IMG/VR virus record: IMGVR_UViG_3300014059_000009
Length of the DNA stretch: 20,000 nucleotides
DNA from: an uncultured virus (IMG/VR IMGVR_UViG_3300014059_000009)
Lineage: Duplodnaviria; Heunggongvirae; Uroviricota; Caudoviricetes
Reading direction: 5' to 3' (one strand)
Shown: in pieces, positions 2,137 through 9,713 of the stretch
Position numbering within the stretch: the stretch's first letter is position 1
Layout of the letters: the number at the start of each line of letters is the position of its first letter
Translations under genes and position numbers: made by a program
Notes under the pieces: model-generated
What the model was told of the DNA's origin: nothing
Seen by the model: only the letters and a program-made list of their open reading frames with translations
Databases searched by the model: none

Positions 2137-4095
2137 ATGGCCGACGCCGATAAAGACGCCATCATCAAGCTTGCCAACGCCCGCATGAATGAGGCGTATT
2201 CGGCTGACCAGCCCCACCGCGAACGCGCGCAGGATGATCTGAAAAACGTCATCGGCGACCAGTGGCCGCAGGACGAACGGCAGGAGCGCGAGAGCGAAGG
2301 CCGCCCGTGCCTGACCATCAACATTCTTGCCCAGAACGTGCGTCAGGTGACAGGGCAGATCAGGTCGCTCAACCCGGCCATCAAGGTCACTGCAGCCGAC
2401 AGCGCGGCGAACAAGGACACCGCCGAAGTCATTGAGGGCATGATCCGGCACATCGAGAACAAGTCCGATGCGTCCAGCATCTATGAGGCGGCGACGGAAA
2501 GCGCGGCGGCCTCTTCTATCGGTTACTGGCGCGTTCGGGCCGACTACGCCGAAGGGGACACCTTCGACCAGGAGTTGCGGATCGAGCGGGTGTTCAACCC
2601 CTTCGCTGTTTTTCTGGACCCGTTCGCGAAAGACCCCACCCGCAAGGACGCGCGGTATGGGTTCATCGTGGCGGAAATGCCGAAGGAAGACTTCGAGGCG
2701 GAGTATCCCGACGCGCAGGTGATGGACATCACCGGGGATCACCGCATCCCGAACTTCGAGCAATGGGCCACGGCAGAGCGTGTCGTGGTGGCCGAATACT
2801 TCTGGATCGACCACAAAGAACACGAAATCGGGTTGCTGCCCTCCGGTCAGGTGATCAAGGGTCCGTTTCCCAAGGGCATCCAGATCGGCAAGAAGCGCAC
2901 AGTGCGGACGCCGCAGGTGATGTGGGCCAAGGTGACCGGGGCCGAGGTGCTGGAAGGCCCTACGGAATTCCCGTGCAGCTACATCCCCATCGTCGCCGTG
3001 ACGGGCGAGGAGTGGCACCTCGGCGAGGAATCGTACCGGTCCAGCGTGATCCGGTTCGCAAAAGACCCGCAGCGGATGTTCAACTATGCCGCCTCGACGG
3101 ATGCGGAGGTGACTTCAGCGCAGCCCAAAGCGCCGTTCATGGTGTCTACGCAGCAGATCAAGGGCTTTGAGGATATCTGGGCGGAAATGGGGGTGAAGAA
3201 CCGCCCGTATCTGCCATACAACCCCGATCCCGAGGCCGGGATGCCGCAGCGGATTAACCCGCCGGTTGCATCCCAAGCCCTGCAGCTGCAAATGCAGATG
3301 GCGGCGGAGAACATCAAGCGCACGACCGGCATCTACGACGCCAGCCTGGGCGCGCGGTCCAACGAAACCAGCGGCAAGGCGATCCTGGCGCGCAAGGAAG
3401 AGTCGCAGAACTCAACCTCGATCTATTCGGACAACATGGTCAAGGCGATCACCCACACCGGCTGCATCCTCGTGGACATGATCCCGCGCATTTACGACAC
3501 GCAGCGGATCGTTCGGGTGCTCGGCGAAGATGGCCAGGAGAAGATGGAGACGATCAACAAGCTGGTGATGACGGCTCAAGGCCCCGCGACGATGAACGAC
3601 ATGACCGCTGGCCGGTATGACGTGAACGTATCGGTCGGCCCGTCCTATTCGGCGAAGCGCGAGGAAACGCGCGATGGCTTGCAGGCGCTGTTGCAGGCGG
3701 TTCCCGGCGCGGCACAACTCATTGGCGACCTGTATGTGTCGTCAATGGATTGGGAACACGCCGACCGGGCCGCTGAACGGATGCGCAAGATGTTGCCCCC
3801 GGGTGTTGCCGAGGAGTCCGAAGAGGACATGACGCCGGAGCAGATGCAGGCCAAGCAGCAGCAGATGATGCAAGCGCAGCAAGAAGCGCAGATGCAGCAA
3901 GAGGCGCAACAGATTGCCAAGGCGAAAGCCATCGCCGAGGTGAAAGAGGCGGAAGCCAAGGCCCGCAAGGCCGAAGCCGAGGCGCAAAAGACCGAACTGG
4001 AGGTCGCGATTATGAGCGGCCAGGTTCGGCAGATGGTCGAGGGCGCAGTTGCCCAGACCGCACACGCCATGACCCTGCAACACGCGGGCATGTAA
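2137..4095 (+). CDS. Portal protein, P22-type
   Basis: 652 aa directly after TerL. Motifs GDQWP..., RPCLTIN, IRFAKDPQRMFNY, SNETSGKAILAR, YDTQRIVRVLGEDG, GRYDVNVSVGPSY; Q/A/E-rich C-terminal coiled coil (barrel). Confidence 0.93.
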   Translation: MADADKDAIIKLANARMNEAYSADQPHRERAQDDLKNVIGDQWPQDERQERESEGRPCLTINILAQNVRQVTGQIRSLNPAIKVTAADSAANKDTAEVIEGMIRHIENKSDASSIYEAATESAAASSIGYWRVRADYAEGDTFDQELRIERVFNPFAVFLDPFAKDPTRKDARYGFIVAEMPKEDFEAEYPDAQVMDITGDHRIPNFEQWATAERVVVAEYFWIDHKEHEIGLLPSGQVIKGPFPKGIQIGKKRTVRTPQVMWAKVTGAEVLEGPTEFPCSYIPIVAVTGEEWHLGEESYRSSVIRFAKDPQRMFNYAASTDAEVTSAQPKAPFMVSTQQIKGFEDIWAEMGVKNRPYLPYNPDPEAGMPQRINPPVASQALQLQMQMAAENIKRTTGIYDASLGARSNETSGKAILARKEESQNSTSIYSDNMVKAITHTGCILVDMIPRIYDTQRIVRVLGEDGQEKMETINKLVMTAQGPATMNDMTAGRYDVNVSVGPSYSAKREETRDGLQALLQAVPGAAQLIGDLYVSSMDWEHADRAAERMRKMLPPGVAEESEEDMTPEQMQAKQQQMMQAQQEAQMQQEAQQIAKAKAIAEVKEAEAKARKAEAEAQKTELEVAIMSGQVRQMVEGAVAQTAHAMTLQHAGM

Positions 4096-4115
4096 CCCCT
4101 TTAAGCGAGGAACCG

Positions 4116-4922
4116 ATGGAAGACGAAAGCGCGGCAGCCCTTGTGGCCGCCCCTGAACCCGTTGTCACAGAAGCGCCGAAGGGCGAAGAAGCAGGGCAGG
4201 TTGAAACCCCGCCCGCCGAGGGGCAACCCGAGGAGAAGAGTGAGTCAGCCAAGCGCCGCGAACGCGAGAAAGCGTACCGGGCGCGGTTGCAGACCGAAGC
4301 CGCCGAAGCGAAGGCCGAAGCCGAACAGGCCAAGGCGCGTCGTCAGGCAATTCTGGACGCGGCAAAGCAGGAAGCCCCGCCGAAGGAAGACGATTTCCCT
4401 GATCCGATTGAATTCGCCGCCGCCAAAGCAATTTGGGGCGCGGAGCAACGGCTGACGGCGCGAGAAGCGAAGAATGCCGGTGATGCGGCGAAAGCCGCTG
4501 AGGACAAGGCGGAGGAAATTGGCAAGCGTGACCGCGCAATCCTGGAGCAATCCTGGGCTGCGGCGCGCGAAGAGGCCAAGACCAGATACGCGGATTTCGA
4601 GACGGTCGCGCTGACGGGGTGGGAACCTTCGCCAGCCATGACCGACCTGATCCTCACGTCTGACGTTGGCCCGGATGTTGCCTATCACCTCGGCCAGAAC
4701 CGCGCGCTGGCCGCGCAGATCGCAGCAATGAGCCAGGTGGAAGCCGCAAGGGCGATTGGCCGCATCGAGGCCAGCATCGTCGCGCCGAAGCCGCGAACCG
4801 AAACCAAGGCCCCCGATCCGATCAACCCCGTGCGGGGATCGGCGGCGGCTGGCCGCAACCCTGACACCATGTCCTACGTCGAGTGGGTCAAGTGGCGTGA
4901 GGGCGGTGGCAAAATCACCTGA
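4116..4922 (+). CDS. Scaffolding protein
   Basis: Between portal and coat; acidic, Ala/Glu-rich and helical, with GPDVAYHLGQN and KAPDPINPV motifs. SD GAGGA upstream. Confidence 0.85.
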   Translation: MEDESAAALVAAPEPVVTEAPKGEEAGQVETPPAEGQPEEKSESAKRREREKAYRARLQTEAAEAKAEAEQAKARRQAILDAAKQEAPPKEDDFPDPIEFAAAKAIWGAEQRLTAREAKNAGDAAKAAEDKAEEIGKRDRAILEQSWAAAREEAKTRYADFETVALTGWEPSPAMTDLILTSDVGPDVAYHLGQNRALAAQIAAMSQVEAARAIGRIEASIVAPKPRTETKAPDPINPVRGSAAAGRNPDTMSYVEWVKWREGGGKIT

Positions 4923-4934
4923 GGAGGGTGAACA

Positions 4935-6167
4935 ATGGCTAACAGCTTCTTCACAGTGGCGGCCATCTCGAAAGAGCTGGTCCGCCTGATGGAAAACGAC
5001 CTCGTTCTCGGCAAGTCGGTTGGCACCGACAATCTGGAAAACGAGACCGTCAAGTCCGGTGGCGCGGTCAAGGTGCGCCGCCAGATGCAATACCTCGGCC
5101 AGGACAACAACCTCGATCTGTCGGCCTTCTCGGAAGACGTGACCGAGGGCACCGTCACCGTGACCCTCGACCAGACCTGGTCGAACAAGGTCAGCATCAG
5201 CGCCATCGACCGGACGCTCTCGTTCGACCGCTATTCGCAGCAAATCCTGCAACCGATGGCGCGGCGCGCGGCGGAAAAGGTCGAGGCGTCCATCGCGGCC
5301 CTCTATCCCGCGTTCTACTGGTTCGACGGCACCCCCGGCACCATTCCCGCCACCTATTCGGCGGTTGCCGATGCGGGGGCGATCTTCACCGATGGCGGCA
5401 ACACCATCAGCGGACGCCTCGGGTTCCACAGCCCGGCATGTTCGGCCAAGCTGGCCGCGCTGATCCAGGGCACCTACGTGGACGGCAATAACAAGAAGGC
5501 CCTCGAAATGGCCAAGGTTGGCCGCTACGCCGGTTTCGACAACTATGAAACCGTCTTCGCGCCGACCCACACCGTCGGCCCGCTGGGCGGCACCCCGCTG
5601 ATCAACGGCGGCGCTCAGGCCGTGACCTACGCCGCCGCCAAGGACACTTGGTCGCAATCGCTGATCACCGATGGCTGGACCGCCGCTGCGGCTGCCCGCC
5701 TGAATGCCGGTGATGTGTTCACCATCGCGAACGTCTTCGCGGTGAACCCGAATACGAAGCAATCGACCGGGCGGCTCCAGACCTTCACCGTTCTTGCCAA
5801 CGCAAGCTCGGACGGCGCGGGCAACCTGACCGCGACGATTTCGCCCCCGATCATCACCTCGGGCGCGTTCCAGACCGTCAACGCGGTCCCCGCCGACAAC
5901 GCGGCCATCACGATCAAGACCGGCACGGCGGCCACGGCCTACCGTCAGTCGCTCCTGATCGACCCGCAGGCAATCGCGCTGGTTTCCCGCCCGCTGGACA
6001 TCCCGTCGGGTGAGGGCCTGAAGACCAGCACGGTGTCTGGCGAGTTCGTCACCATGTCGGTGTCGAGCTGGGTGGATGGCAACACGCTGGCCGAGAACAT
6101 GAGATTCGATATGTTGTGGAAACCTATCGTTCTTGATCCTCGTCGCGGCATGAGGTTGACAAACTAA
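4935..6167 (+). CDS. Major capsid (coat) protein, P22 gp5 family
   Basis: 410 aa after the scaffold, MANSFFT start, LNAGDVFTIANVFAVNP insertion-domain motif. Very strong GC3 bias; SD GGAGG upstream. Confidence 0.92.
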   Translation: MANSFFTVAAISKELVRLMENDLVLGKSVGTDNLENETVKSGGAVKVRRQMQYLGQDNNLDLSAFSEDVTEGTVTVTLDQTWSNKVSISAIDRTLSFDRYSQQILQPMARRAAEKVEASIAALYPAFYWFDGTPGTIPATYSAVADAGAIFTDGGNTISGRLGFHSPACSAKLAALIQGTYVDGNNKKALEMAKVGRYAGFDNYETVFAPTHTVGPLGGTPLINGGAQAVTYAAAKDTWSQSLITDGWTAAAAARLNAGDVFTIANVFAVNPNTKQSTGRLQTFTVLANASSDGAGNLTATISPPIITSGAFQTVNAVPADNAAITIKTGTAATAYRQSLLIDPQAIALVSRPLDIPSGEGLKTSTVSGEFVTMSVSSWVDGNTLAENMRFDMLWKPIVLDPRRGMRLTN

Positions 6168-6184
6168 GGCTCCGCCTTAAGAAT
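6156..6184 (+). promoter_or_regulatory. Putative sigma70 promoter for the HNH gene, with the -35 inside the last coat codons
   Basis: TTGACA (6156-6161), 17-nt spacer, AAGAAT (6179-6184, 4/6 match to TATAAT). Confidence 0.6.
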
Positions 6185-6189
6185 CAAGC

Positions 6190-6249
6190 GGCTAGGCATC
6201 GACTTGCAGGTCTTTGCCTAGCCTCACCAAACCAGACCGTTGGAGGGTC
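6190..6249 (+). promoter_or_regulatory. Structured 5' leader of the HNH gene (two hairpins, the second covering the RBS)
   Basis: GGCTAGGCA (6190-6198) pairs with TGCCTAGCC (6215-6223), with inner GACT/GGTC and loop TGCA. GACC (6235-6238) pairs with GGTC (6246-6249), enclosing SD GGAGG (6242-6246). Confidence 0.55.
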
Positions 6250-6253
6250 CAAA

Positions 6254-6781
6254 ATGGCTAAGGAAAACCTACCTACTATTTCTGTCGTGCGCAACTTGCT
6301 CCGCTATGAGCCGGATACCGGGAAACTGTTCTGGTTGCCGCGCGGCGGGGGCCGGTTTGACAAACTCTTTGCAGGCAAGGAAGCCTTCACCGCAACTGAT
6401 CCGGGCGGCTACAAATACGGGTCGCTTCAGTCCCATACGATGCGAGCGCATGTGGTCGCGTGGGCGCTGGCCTATGGAAAATGGCCTGATGGCCACATCG
6501 ACCACGAGAACGGTATCCGAGAAGATAACAGGCTGAAGAACCTGAGCCTTGGGACGCAAGCCCAGAACAACAGGAACGCCAAGCGCCGCAATGACAACAA
6601 GAGCGGCGTCGTGGGCGTGATTTGGTTCCCGAAAATGAGCATGTGGCGCGCCTACATCAACGTAAGCGGGTCTTGGAAGCACATCGGGTATTTCGACACA
6701 AGAGAAGCCGCCGCAATAGCGCGCAAGGCTGCTGAAGCACAATACGGGTTCCACAAGAACCACGGGAGATCGTCCCCATGA
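6254..6781 (+). CDS. HNH homing endonuclease with C-terminal AP2 DNA-binding domain
   Basis: LLRYEPDTGKLFW N-terminus; HNH_3 motif AHVVAWALAYGKWPDGHIDHENGIREDNRLKNL; AP2 motif NKSGVVGVIW...WRAYI...KHIGYFDTREAAAIARKAAE. Overlaps the next gene by ATGA. Confidence 0.92.
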   Translation: MAKENLPTISVVRNLLRYEPDTGKLFWLPRGGGRFDKLFAGKEAFTATDPGGYKYGSLQSHTMRAHVVAWALAYGKWPDGHIDHENGIREDNRLKNLSLGTQAQNNRNAKRRNDNKSGVVGVIWFPKMSMWRAYINVSGSWKHIGYFDTREAAAIARKAAEAQYGFHKNHGRSSP

Positions 6782-7149
6782 CGACAGCGCGAGATATCGT
6801 TGAGTCCGCCTTCCGCAAGATCGGGGTGGTCGCGAGTGATGAGCCTATGACCGCTGACCAAGCGGACAACGGGATCAACGCGCTAAACCGCATGATGCAC
6901 GGCTGGCTTCTGGACGGCATCGACATCGGCCACATCGACCTTGATCTGGCTGACGTGTTCACGATGGAGCCGCAGTTCGAGGAGGGGTGCGTCTACCTTC
7001 TCGCCGAACGGCTTTCCCCCGACTACGAAGCCCCGGTCAACTTCAGCACTTCCGATTTCAAGAAGCGGCTGTCTGCGGCCTACCTGATCATTCCCGACAG
7101 CAAGTTCGACCGGACGCTGACACGCCGCCGGAGTTTCTGGAATGCCTAG
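6778..7149 (+). CDS. Head-to-tail adaptor, P22 gp4-like
   Basis: MTTARDIVESAFRKIGV...ADNGINALNRMMHGW...LAERLSPDY; 123 aa, immediately before the gp10-like gene. Confidence 0.85.
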   Translation: MTTARDIVESAFRKIGVVASDEPMTADQADNGINALNRMMHGWLLDGIDIGHIDLDLADVFTMEPQFEEGCVYLLAERLSPDYEAPVNFSTSDFKKRLSAAYLIIPDSKFDRTLTRRRSFWNA

Positions 7150-8497
7150 GGTCGAGTTTGCGGGCCAATCCGCCAGGGATGCCGACAACCCGGCTGGCAA
7201 CCCTTCGCGGCTGATCAACGGATACCGTGAGCCGATGGTGGCTGGTGGCCGCTCCGGGGCCGTCCTGCGGGCTGTGCCGGGGATGGCCGATTTCGCCGAG
7301 GTCGGCGATGTATTTGTCCGCGCCATGTCGAATTTTGACGGGGGCATCATGGCCATCGTCGGCACGAACCTTCACCGGATCGAAACAGACGGCACCGTGA
7401 CGCTGATCGGCGACGTGGATGCGACAGACGCCATCGCCGGGCTGGACCAAAGCACGGGTTATGTCGTGGCCGTTGCGGGCCGGAAATACTGGCATTGGAA
7501 CGGCACGACGCTTGCGACTGTGGTGGCCGGAAACGTGCCGAACCCGGCATCCGTCGCCTATCTGGGCGGCTATGTCATCGTGTCAGACTACGGGACGCGC
7601 GTGTTTGGATGGTCGGCGCTGGCCGATCCTACGACATGGAGCGGGCTGGACTTCGCAAGCGCAGAAATCACCCCAGACCCGATTATCCGGCTGATCGCAT
7701 TCAAGGACGCGCTTTACGTCTTCAAGGCTACAGGCTTTGAACGTTGGGCGGTGACCGGCCTATCTGGACCGGACGCTTTCCAGCGCATCGGCGGCGCGCA
7801 AGAGGAACCGGGGCTTGCTGCCTATGGCCTGATCGTCACGTTCCCGAACGGACTGTCCTATGTCGGTTCGGATGGGCGGGTCTATGTGTTTGGGGTCGGG
7901 CCGATTTCGACACCGCCGGTGGAAGTGGCGATTGAACGCCTCGGGCCGAACCGGATGTTCTACTATGAACAGCGGGGACATGGGTTCATCTGCATCGCCT
8001 TCGATGAAACCTTTGCCTGGTGCTATGACACGGCGACCGGGGAATGGCACGAGCGGGCGCAGAGCGACATGCCGTGGCAGGCGCGCGCCTCGGTCAAGGT
8101 CGGAACAGCTTGGTATGTCGGCACGGATTCCGGGAAGATTGCCCAACTGACAGGCCGGTGCGCCGACTTTGGCGACCCGATGGTGCGGCGCTACGTTTCG
8201 CGGACGCTTGATGCGGGCGAGCGGTTCACCGTGGCGAAGATCGAGGCATTCCCGCGCATCGAGGGGGATACTCAAGGCGACGGCGACACGACCGAGGCCA
8301 AGGTCACGTTGGAAATGTCGCGCGACGGCGGGTTCACATACGGCAATCCGAAGGATCGCAGCGTCGGGGCGGTCGGGGCCTATGAAACGCGACTGACATG
8401 GCGGGCCTTGGGGCAGTTTCGCAAGGCAACCATGCAGTTGTCTATTTCGTCCACAACCGACATTCCGCTTCTCTCTGAAATCGACGTGGCGCTCTGA
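7142..8497 (+). CDS. Tail hub / packaged-DNA stabilisation protein, P22 gp10-like
   Basis: 451 aa, beta-propeller-like. Motifs LDFASAEITPDPI, YEQRGHGF, WCYDTATGEWHER, SRDGGFTYG...GAVGAYETRLTWRALG. Confidence 0.9.
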   Translation: MPRVEFAGQSARDADNPAGNPSRLINGYREPMVAGGRSGAVLRAVPGMADFAEVGDVFVRAMSNFDGGIMAIVGTNLHRIETDGTVTLIGDVDATDAIAGLDQSTGYVVAVAGRKYWHWNGTTLATVVAGNVPNPASVAYLGGYVIVSDYGTRVFGWSALADPTTWSGLDFASAEITPDPIIRLIAFKDALYVFKATGFERWAVTGLSGPDAFQRIGGAQEEPGLAAYGLIVTFPNGLSYVGSDGRVYVFGVGPISTPPVEVAIERLGPNRMFYYEQRGHGFICIAFDETFAWCYDTATGEWHERAQSDMPWQARASVKVGTAWYVGTDSGKIAQLTGRCADFGDPMVRRYVSRTLDAGERFTVAKIEAFPRIEGDTQGDGDTTEAKVTLEMSRDGGFTYGNPKDRSVGAVGAYETRLTWRALGQFRKATMQLSISSTTDIPLLSEIDVAL

Positions 8498-8982
8498 TGC
8501 TGAAACTACGGACAGACACTGCCTATGTCGGGCAGGACGGCAAGCTGACGCAGGCGGGCGTGGAGGCTATCCAGGGGCAGCTGGATTCCATCGTTTCGAG
8601 CATTTCTGGCATCGGCGGCTTTACATTGGCCAATTTCGCCCCGGCGGCAATCGTGACGGCACCCGAAACCATCGTGGCAAACTACGTTGATACAGCTCTC
8701 CCGACGAGCGCGGCTGTCAAGGACTACGCGGATGCGACGGTCATGCCGACCACGGCGGCGGCGGCGGTGGATGCTATCGGCGCATATGCCATGTTGAGGC
8801 AGACGACGACCAACACACCGCGAAACCCCGGCGATACATTGGCTGGCGCAAATCTTCGATACGAGAGTGTTGCGGGCAACGGTGCCGGTGGCGCTCCTCC
8901 GGGAACATGGATGCTGTGCGGGTCCATCATATCGGGCGCGGGCAACACCACGAACACTTCGCTATGGCGGCGGATTTCCTAG
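8497..8982 (+). CDS. Tail needle / short fibre-like protein (gp26 position)
   Basis: Follows gp10-like via TGATG. Short heptad region plus a C-terminal fibre-tip-like motif (GANLRY...GTWMLCG...SLWRRIS). Confidence 0.55.
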   Translation: MLKLRTDTAYVGQDGKLTQAGVEAIQGQLDSIVSSISGIGGFTLANFAPAAIVTAPETIVANYVDTALPTSAAVKDYADATVMPTTAAAAVDAIGAYAMLRQTTTNTPRNPGDTLAGANLRYESVAGNGAGGAPPGTWMLCGSIISGAGNTTNTSLWRRIS

Positions 8983-8991
8983 GGTGATGAA

Positions 8992-9348
8992 ATGATCCAA
9001 CTTCCGCCCATGAAAATCGCTCAAGGCGAGCCTTTTGGCTATGATTTCACCGTCGAAGGGCAAAACTGGACCGGATACACGGGAACAGCGACGTTCAAGC
9101 GATCCCTGAAGGCTGTTGCGGGCGTCAACTGGTGGCTCATGACGCAAGAGGAGCCGATTGTCACGGTTTCCGTCGTGGCAGATGCCACCGGGCTGGTTCA
9201 GATCGCCCTGACGAAAACGCAAACGGCTGATTTCCCGACGCTGGACCGTCAGGGATACTTCCGGCAGGCGGTTTGCCAGGTGACGATGACCAGCGGCGCT
9301 GATGTGCAGACGTTCCAGGCCCGCGTTCTAGTGGCTGCGGCGGCGTGA
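8992..9348 (+). CDS. Hypothetical virion protein, beta-sandwich (BppU N-terminal-like)
   Basis: IAQGEPFGYDFTV...WTGYTGTATFK...ATGLVQIALTKTQTADF pattern; fills the gap in the operon. SD GGTGA upstream. Confidence 0.55.
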   Translation: MIQLPPMKIAQGEPFGYDFTVEGQNWTGYTGTATFKRSLKAVAGVNWWLMTQEEPIVTVSVVADATGLVQIALTKTQTADFPTLDRQGYFRQAVCQVTMTSGADVQTFQARVLVAAAA

Positions 9349-9713
9349 TCCGCACCCTGACGGCACAAGAGGCGGTGCCTTTCTTCTGGCACCCCTATCA
9401 CGGGGACATTTCGACCGAGGACTGGATGCAATTCCGCGCCTGTGAGGGCGTTTGCGGGGCATTTCACCAGCATCTGTGGCCCGGCGTGTGGATGGTCCAT
9501 GTCGGGATGCTGAAAGACGCCAGAGGGCGCGGCGACAGGGCTGCAAGGGCCATTCTGCAGGCGTTCTCGGCAGAGGTCGGGGCCGAGCGGATCATCGGAT
9601 GGGTTCGGGAAGACAACCGGGCGGTTTTGGCGATGAGCCGCCGCGTCGGCTTTGAAATCGATGGCCGGTTGCCCCTCGCGGTGCCGGTCGCCTTGTTAGG
9701 TTGGAGGCCCTGA
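9345..9713 (+). CDS. GNAT-fold protein, P22 gp14/DUF2824-like
   Basis: VHVGML...RIIGWVREDNRAVLAMSRRVGFEIDG (GNAT NxxAxxxxxxxGF motif). Position just before the gp7-like gene; GTGA coupling. Confidence 0.75.
   Translation: MIRTLTAQEAVPFFWHPYHGDISTEDWMQFRACEGVCGAFHQHLWPGVWMVHVGMLKDARGRGDRAARAILQAFSAEVGAERIIGWVREDNRAVLAMSRRVGFEIDGRLPLAVPVALLGWRP

Follow-up and report, generated by a model that had tools for sequence, protein, structure and literature searches.

The DNA analyzed here is a 20,000-nt stretch (the window; positions are counted from its first letter) of an uncultured member of the Caudoviricetes, IMG/VR record IMGVR_UViG_3300014059_000009. It comes from a P22-like wastewater phage, covers its head-tail module and is part of a 36.8-kb IMG/VR virus record. 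Between the genes for the major coat protein and the gp4-like head-tail adaptor it carries a free-standing gene for an HNH endonuclease with an AP2 domain. Comparison with nearly identical phages lacking this gene showed that the nuclease gene belongs to a block of 674 nt, which starts inside the coat gene, respells its last 21 codons without changing the protein and replaces the terminator behind it. The cassette fits the already known intronless homing, and a near-identical nuclease-free allele together with mixed populations fixes its boundary to the base. Judging from the sequence comparisons, we favor with moderate confidence a scenario of intronless homing, in which a free-standing HNH(HNN)-AP2 cassette at 6102-6775 has replaced the coat end and the terminator, and in which the co-inherited tail probably resists cleavage.

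The recoded coat tail and its nuclease-free counterparts

Relatives were collected by scanning IMG/VR for the coat peptide NMRFDMLW in every possible codon spelling, which returned 36 loci. Three of these (L004, L005 and L006) encode coat proteins 99.5-100% identical and gp4 proteins 90-99% identical to those of the window, and lack the HNH gene. Their coat stop codon is followed by 52-53 nt containing an 11-bp GC-rich terminator hairpin with a T-run and then directly by gp4. This terminator hairpin is kept in relatives down to ~60% coat identity; therefore, the HNH-less state is ancestral and the cassette is a gain. In the 1167 nt of the coat gene ahead of 6102, window and L005 differ at nine positions, the last of them at 6038, and they are identical throughout 6039-6101; the final 66 nt then contain 16 differences (Fisher p=1e-15 for the contrast at 6102). 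Comparison with L004 yielded 27 differences ahead of 6102 and 15 in the last 66 nt, and comparison with L006 yielded 19 and 15, respectively. Tail differences to all three alleles are synonymous without exception, leaving the 21 residues identical. The original prediction, made from the letters alone, had placed the start of a mobile unit near 6102 and proposed a synonymous replacement of the coat C-terminus. Both proposals are borne out, and the divergence step against the HNH-less relatives sets the left edge at 6102 to the base.

On the right side, gp4 shows no divergent tract; of its 372 positions, four differ from L004, beginning with 6795. Altogether, 6102-6775 stands in for 118 nt of the HNH-less allele, namely 66 nt of native tail and a 52-nt spacer bearing the terminator, and the native GGTGA-type gp4 site of L004-L006 is absent from the window. 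Within the tail, 13 of the 18 degenerate codons are changed relative to the native spelling, 12 of 14 changes against the consensus of the relatives go from G/C to A/T, and the three native runs of at least three G or C are all absent. The longest stretch identical between both tails measures 8 nt. Since it has no longer run of identity, the recoded tail cannot recombine with the native tail and is therefore inherited together with the nuclease gene.

The shift in composition described earlier for this gene end was reproduced: three codons between 6003 and 6101 end in A or T (GGT, TCT, GAT), compared to 10 of 18 degenerate codons within the final 21, with AGA, AGG and two TTG included and the reading frame intact (RFDMLWKPIVLDPRRGMRLTN). 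The G+C content at third codon positions (GC3) is 0.866 over the 389 codons ahead of 6102 and 11/21 behind. This drop from body to tail amounts to 0.35, the largest found among 29 relatives being 0.19. The window tail is at least 14/63 nt away from the tail of each of 20 relatives, and the nine relatives of at least 73% coat identity are on average 8.7 apart. The composition of the tail on its own is unusual, but not unique, with 149 of 5658 21-codon windows (2.6%) across 20 window genes showing a GC3 as low or lower. IMG/VR contained no exact match (0) to the recoded tail, and the coat-peptide scan gave no other AT-shifted tail. Among GenBank phages no near relative was found, with a single 103-nt match only, while species genomes contained two loci, of which the closer one, a 62% relative, belongs to a Pelagimonas metagenome-assembled genome and has no HNH gene.

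The stretch 5700-7100 was detected in 14 DNA sequencing runs at at least 0.89 of the sampled words. Four of these are possibly the source; the ten others stem from eight studies and represent sludge, river and freshwater from 2023-2025. Three DNA runs (X5, X6 and X9) and one RNA run (X15) were compared with the window as contigs, the placement of branch points assuming 31-letter words for these contigs. In X5, the left common unitig ends at 6101 (depth 128), the cassette unitig covers 6072-6805 (depth 41, 0 differences) and a deeper unitig starts at 6796 (depth 118). In X9, a left unitig 5939-6101 and a variant 5939-6104 (depth 11 each) were found next to a cassette unitig 6075-6805 (depth 10, 0 differences), the flanks having a summed depth of ~22. 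Unitig ends of both runs put the branch points at 6102-6105 and at 6775. X6 contains an HNH-carrying (HNH+) unitig 5981-6899 (depth 39, 15 differences) and an alternative 5981-6148 (depth 30), whose 12 differences are about as many as expected for a native tail; the left shared unitig was not resolved in this run. HNH+ and HNH-less alleles thus occur together in 3/3 DNA runs examined, and in X5 and X9 the block with the recoded tail is invariant and its flanks are variable. The segment 6102-6775 behaves as a single unit across independent metagenomes. Contigs of the RNA run X15 contain the HNH-less allele only, with zero cover of 6174-6719 and a loose end after 6165 that reads into the terminator, and have no bearing on expression of the HNH gene.

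These data also bear on a simpler explanation, according to which the tail has nothing to do with the HNH gene and is an ordinary recombination patch or an assembly chimera. Differences between these phages are indeed commonly clustered in patches, for instance 6014-6074 in the comparison with L004 and 8271-8400 in gp10. Yet the block is present with 0 differences as single unitigs in two runs from other studies, with branch points at both ends, no other IMG/VR contig has this tail, and the patch ends exactly where the cassette starts, making this explanation highly improbable.

The nuclease gene, its leader and a second cassette type

The features of the block and its surroundings are:

4935..6167, plus strand: P22-type major coat protein gene, 410 aa (Pfam PF11651, E=3e-42, residues 1-408; phrog_283)
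6048..6101, plus strand: left homology arm, within the most nucleotide-conserved coat stretch among diverged relatives
6102..6167, plus strand: recoded coat tail, 21 codons plus stop, protein unchanged (15-16 nt off the HNH-less alleles; GC 0.44; GC3 11/21)
6102..6775, plus strand: mobile block, 674 nt (alignment with L004-L006; unitigs of runs X5 and X9)
6156..6184, plus strand: sigma-70-like promoter candidate TTGACA-17-AAGAAT, -35 in the coat codons for Leu-Thr and -10 in the cassette
6190..6223, plus strand: leader hairpin with a 9-bp outer and a 4-bp inner stem, without a T-run behind it (folding compared to shuffles)
6242..6246, plus strand: Shine-Dalgarno sequence GGAGG, 7 nt ahead of the HNH start codon (read from the sequence)
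6254..6781, plus strand: free-standing HNH (HNN-type) and AP2 homing-endonuclease gene, 175 aa, intact
6764..6769, plus strand: GGGAGA in the 3' end of the HNH gene, predicted ribosome-binding site supplied by the cassette for gp4 (read from the sequence)
6778..7149, plus strand: gp4-like head-tail adaptor gene, right homology arm, not recoded (PF11650, phrog_637)

The HNH protein matches HNH_3 (PF13392) with 57.1 bits (cut-off 24.8) and phrog_99 with E=7e-58. Its AP2 profile match (PF00847) reaches 22.3 bits and stays below the cut-off of 33.3; in the structure model (pLDDT 90.8) this region forms a three-stranded sheet packed on a helix and superposes on solved AP2 domains. The top Foldseek match of the model is I-HmuI (E 3e-3), while a sequence comparison with PDB chains gave no meaningful match to the nuclease. 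Among 521 homologues, two entries are near-identical (99% over the full length and 100% over 58% of the query) and the next closest is 53% identical. In an alignment of 41 sequences, the protein has retained each of the 13 invariant positions, among them H66, D83, H84, N92 and N105. Sequence and model indicate that the nuclease gene is intact and encodes a predicted I-HmuI-like HNH domain together with an AP2 domain. I-HmuI itself is an intron-encoded HNH nicking endonuclease of the Bacillus phage SPO1 (PDB 1u3e), whereas the window gene is free-standing and has AP2 as its C-terminal DNA-binding part. The HNH-AP2 or HNN-AP2 proteins of phages, such as the Xanthomonas phages Xp10, OP1 and Xop411 and ICP1 ('IPA-HNH'), share the domain order and the boxes HR..AW, WP, DNR, NL and N with the window protein and are likewise without Cys dyads (PMC2248197, in part).

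A different HNH-AP2 gene, 44% identical (tblastn), replaces the same spacer in L009 and L010 and in the metagenome contigs L046 and L047 (type B, as against type A in the window); in L010 it spans 4234-4829 and encodes 167 aa. Counted from the alignment, the type B leader is roughly 92% identical to that of the window from TTGACA through the first three codons (~105 nt), a stretch that comprises the -10 box, the spacing, the hairpin (identical in L010) and the ribosome-binding site. Beyond it the genes diverge, the leader being far better conserved than the genes behind. A search with the leader pattern retrieved only type B contigs, two in IMG/VR and four in metagenomes (two being the same records), and no further type A copies or intermediates. 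A near-identical HNH-less relative with a complete tail was not found for type B, L013 ending inside the coat gene.

TTGACA followed 17 nt later by AAGAAT had been pointed out before as a promoter and was located at 6156-6161 and 6179-6184. The arrangement has 10/12 consensus matches and is the sole sigma-70-like match in 4000-9000, where shuffles expect 1.0; it is also present in L010 and absent from the HNH-less L004. The hairpin described for the leader was recovered as well, 6190-6223 folding better than 200/200 shuffles (z -2.5), and it would lie at the 5' end of any transcript starting near 6190. Rfam gave no match in 5900-7000. The leader motif ACCAAACCAGACCG is common to the window and L242, and L211 has only AACCAGACCG. 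As a signal of the whole family, AACCAGACC was considered and dropped, being found in 3/84 leaders and absent from L010.

That the cassette supplies the candidate promoter, as originally predicted, is correct for the -10 box and the spacing, but the -35 box is mostly native: L004-L006 have TTGACC, and L012 and L001 have TTGACA without this cassette. One of the 15-16 tail changes (ACC to ACA) completes TTGACA. What had escaped attention is the loss of the coat terminator, which the cassette swaps for the promoter-like site and the hairpin. For gp4, the cassette brings a predicted ribosome-binding site and translational coupling; the coupling had been recognized before, and the HNH stop codon overlaps the gp4 ATG at 6778 as ATGA.

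These observations raise the question of a regulatory rewrite. After the terminator and the native gp4 signals were lost, selection would have made a promoter (ACC to ACA) and an A/T-richer region upstream of it, and the mRNA structure of the coat end may also have been loosened for expression of HNH and gp4. TTGACA-17-AAGAAT is the sole promoter-like site in 5 kb, is kept in type B and is absent from the HNH-less L004, which agrees with this explanation, as does the location of the promoters of some free-standing T4 endonuclease genes inside the preceding gene, at its 3' end (PMC2988022, in part). However, the hexamers are affected by just one of the 15-16 changes, type B combines this promoter-like site with a native tail rich in GC, L012 and L001 possess TTGACA natively, and chance alone would give one such match in every 5 kb. 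Regulation as the cause of the recoding therefore appears improbable to us.

Proposed cleavage target and possible resistance of the carrier

Homing targets usually lie in conserved sequence. Among six diverged relatives, the 11 most nucleotide-conserved 21-codon windows of the coat gene all start between 6048 and 6081, the tail window itself ranking 44th of 350. The native coat end is thus placed where nucleotide conservation within the gene is highest and is a plausible homing target. In the scenario we favor, the enzyme would nick or cut the conserved native 3' end of the coat gene, at or just to the right of 6102, in HNH-less competitors during co-infection, and the HNH+ genome would be the template from which repair copies the cassette. 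The rewritten tail would spare the carrier genome from cutting, and everything between cut and gene would be obligately co-converted, which would leave a step-like boundary. A target within the 3' end of the coat gene is suggested by the step at 6102, the unshifted gp4 side and the conserved native end of this gene. The A/T direction of the changes would be expected from mutation bias if change as such was favored, or if the linked tract escaped homogenizing recombination. Cleavage, immunity, homing and promoter function are what we infer from these patterns; the functional claims of the original prediction are plausible and partly overstated. The enzyme might possibly still bind the rewritten site over its own promoter and repress itself, by analogy with I-TevI, which reportedly does so.

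Several findings weigh against a protective role of the tail. Type B uses the same site and leader, but its coat tail is not AT-shifted (GC3 0.90; 3/66 nt from L012), so that recoding goes with one cassette type and not with all HNH+ alleles at this junction. Cassettes like type B could have their target in the lost terminator or in the intergenic region, and this might also apply to the window. The tail (11/21) and the HNH gene (0.70) do not differ clearly in GC3, and the synonymous distance of the tail, 14, is only slightly above the 11-12 seen between relatives of 73-86% coat identity. In addition, the HNH+ unitig of X6 departs from the window at 15 of 919 positions, two of them displayed, and across 79 loci with HNH-AP2 relatives the AT shift of adjoining gene ends is weak. 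There, the shift of upstream gene tails was -0.072 (n=32) compared to -0.021 (n=215; p=0.085) and that of downstream gene heads -0.091 (n=27) compared to -0.026 (n=220; p=0.013), the strongest shifts being found beside capsid, portal, polymerase and helicase genes. The sharp breakpoint that had been expected in coat-gene alignments is present at 6102, and an AT-rich end is absent from HNH-less relatives (three near-identical ones; 29 tails), but with type B the association with the nuclease gene is incomplete.

The main rival is accordingly an old linked flank without a role in immunity. The target would be the conserved terminator or intergenic region, which the insertion destroyed, and the tail, the flank linked to it for longest, would have drifted to A/T at synonymous sites by mutation bias and for lack of homogenizing recombination, with continued exchange between the remaining coat gene and HNH-less phages. 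Besides the closeness of the tail distance to that between other relatives, this would account for the finding that type B replaces exactly the spacer and has an unshifted tail, and for the terminator hairpin being kept down to ~60% coat identity. Mosaic exchange is frequent in these phages, and the HNH gene is itself AT-shifted. By segment, GC is 0.44 in the recoded tail, 0.56 in the leader, 0.57 in the HNH gene and 0.645 in the coat body, and AGA and AGG make up 2/4 Arg codons of the tail and 4/14 of the HNH gene, compared to 26/296 in the other genes. However, decay of linkage predicts a gradient, yet 16/66 differences directly abut 0/63; the gp4 side is equally linked and unshifted, and in every relative sampled the coat body is less AT-rich than this tail. 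Drift of a linked flank also leaves the uniform direction of the shift in an unrelated capsid family (below) to be explained, and on balance we consider it unlikely, though a serious competitor.

In the capsid family phrog_9953 (L172:1417-3067, L210-L289), an HNH-AP2 gene lies 58-95 nt behind the capsid gene in 7/80 loci. The HNH genes inspected there represent three or more distinct types, and every cassette type has a leader hairpin of its own. Over the last 30 capsid codons, all seven HNH+ tails are shifted in the same direction as in the window (-0.13 to -0.41), compared to a mean of -0.044 in 73 HNH-less loci (Mann-Whitney p=5.5e-5; p=1.3e-5 for 6 vs 49 distinct tails). One HNH-less locus has an equally AT-shifted capsid tail (L282:2400-2520; 0.50 vs 0.85 in the body), and it may represent a resistant or nuclease-lost allele. 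We put forward, as a tentative and so far rather doubtful generalization, that free-standing homing-endonuclease cassettes generally include, as a heritable part, an essential gene end densely rewritten at synonymous sites, which would make the carrier uncuttable, leave no homology by which tail and gene could be split and embed signals.

The genes mobE, segF, segG and relatives of T4-like phages and the window gene lie between conserved essential genes, are absent from close relatives and have their presumed target in a neighboring conserved gene (PMC2790892, in part). MobE has been proposed to spare its own genome via polymorphisms at the nick site (PMC2790892, in part). Free-standing T4 endonucleases furthermore show co-converted flanks, hairpins near the ribosome-binding site and embedded signals for the downstream gene (PMC2988022, in part), a pattern that the anatomy of the window fits. 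In contrast to the T4 systems, the phage is a P22-like podovirus whose host is a GC-rich bacterium, AP2 serves as DNA-binding domain of the enzyme and the insertion replaces a terminator. Its polymorphic tract is dense, strictly synonymous and abuts the gene, whereas in T4 it lies hundreds of bases away. Phage HNH-AP2 genes, those of the Xanthomonas phages and the 'IPA-HNH' type of ICP1 included, are dispersed, free-standing and often located beside capsid, terminase or polymerase genes (PMC10448857, in part). A rewritten end of a neighboring gene that travels with the nuclease gene is not described for HNH-AP2 genes in the accessible parts of PMC2248197 and PMC10448857. A literature search by title or abstract retrieved no synonymous rewrite beside a phage homing endonuclease, and a description in print is still possible.

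A role in shaping the mosaic genomes of phages is ascribed to free-standing homing endonucleases. To our knowledge, targets have been established for no more than a handful of these enzymes, all from T4. The alleles described here, one carrying the nuclease gene and one lacking it in the same phage, form a matched natural pair; they co-exist in sludge, river and freshwater and differ by a single 674-nt block. Native and rewritten versions of the 66 bp offer a direct handle on how a carrier escapes its own nuclease. If rewritten gene ends go with adjoining nuclease genes in general, as they do in the second capsid family, the rewritten tract would be a footprint of the enzyme target, and the targets of thousands of uncharacterized HNH genes of phages and giant viruses would become predictable from sequence.

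Further insertions at the coat-gp4 junction and other features of the window

The junction between coat gene and gp4 is an insertion hot spot. A third HNH-AP2 gene (type C, 172 aa) was found at L012:1481-1999, behind an intact coat terminator at the old gp4 start and overlapping a new gp4 start. The first gp4 codons of L012 look re-spelled (AGA for CGC), a comparison made without any close nuclease-free relative. L020 (1352-1620) and L016 (2116-2393) have ~270 nt between coat terminator and gp4, which represent further insertions at this site; in the L020 insert a short open reading frame was read off the sequence by eye. At window position 6777, a contig of RNA run X15 enters gp4 from a sequence unlike both the cassette and the native spacer, which may represent yet another insertion type. 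Further downstream, L010 contains an extra 64-aa basic open reading frame (5223-5417) between gp4 and gp10, which is absent from the window, where those genes overlap.

The window encodes the small and large terminase subunits, portal (PF16510, E=8e-180), scaffold and coat proteins, the HNH_3 and AP2 protein, the gp4-like adaptor, a gp10-like protein and ejection proteins. Its stretch of lowest GC3 is 1476-1560 (6/21) in the large terminase gene, at a conserved motif. This patch was considered as a window-specific rewrite and is probably none, as it is partly common to relatives of 88% and 83%. In the tail module, a small open reading frame (9345-9713) gave a borderline match to GNAT acetyltransferases, with 25.1 bits compared to a cut-off of 25.4.

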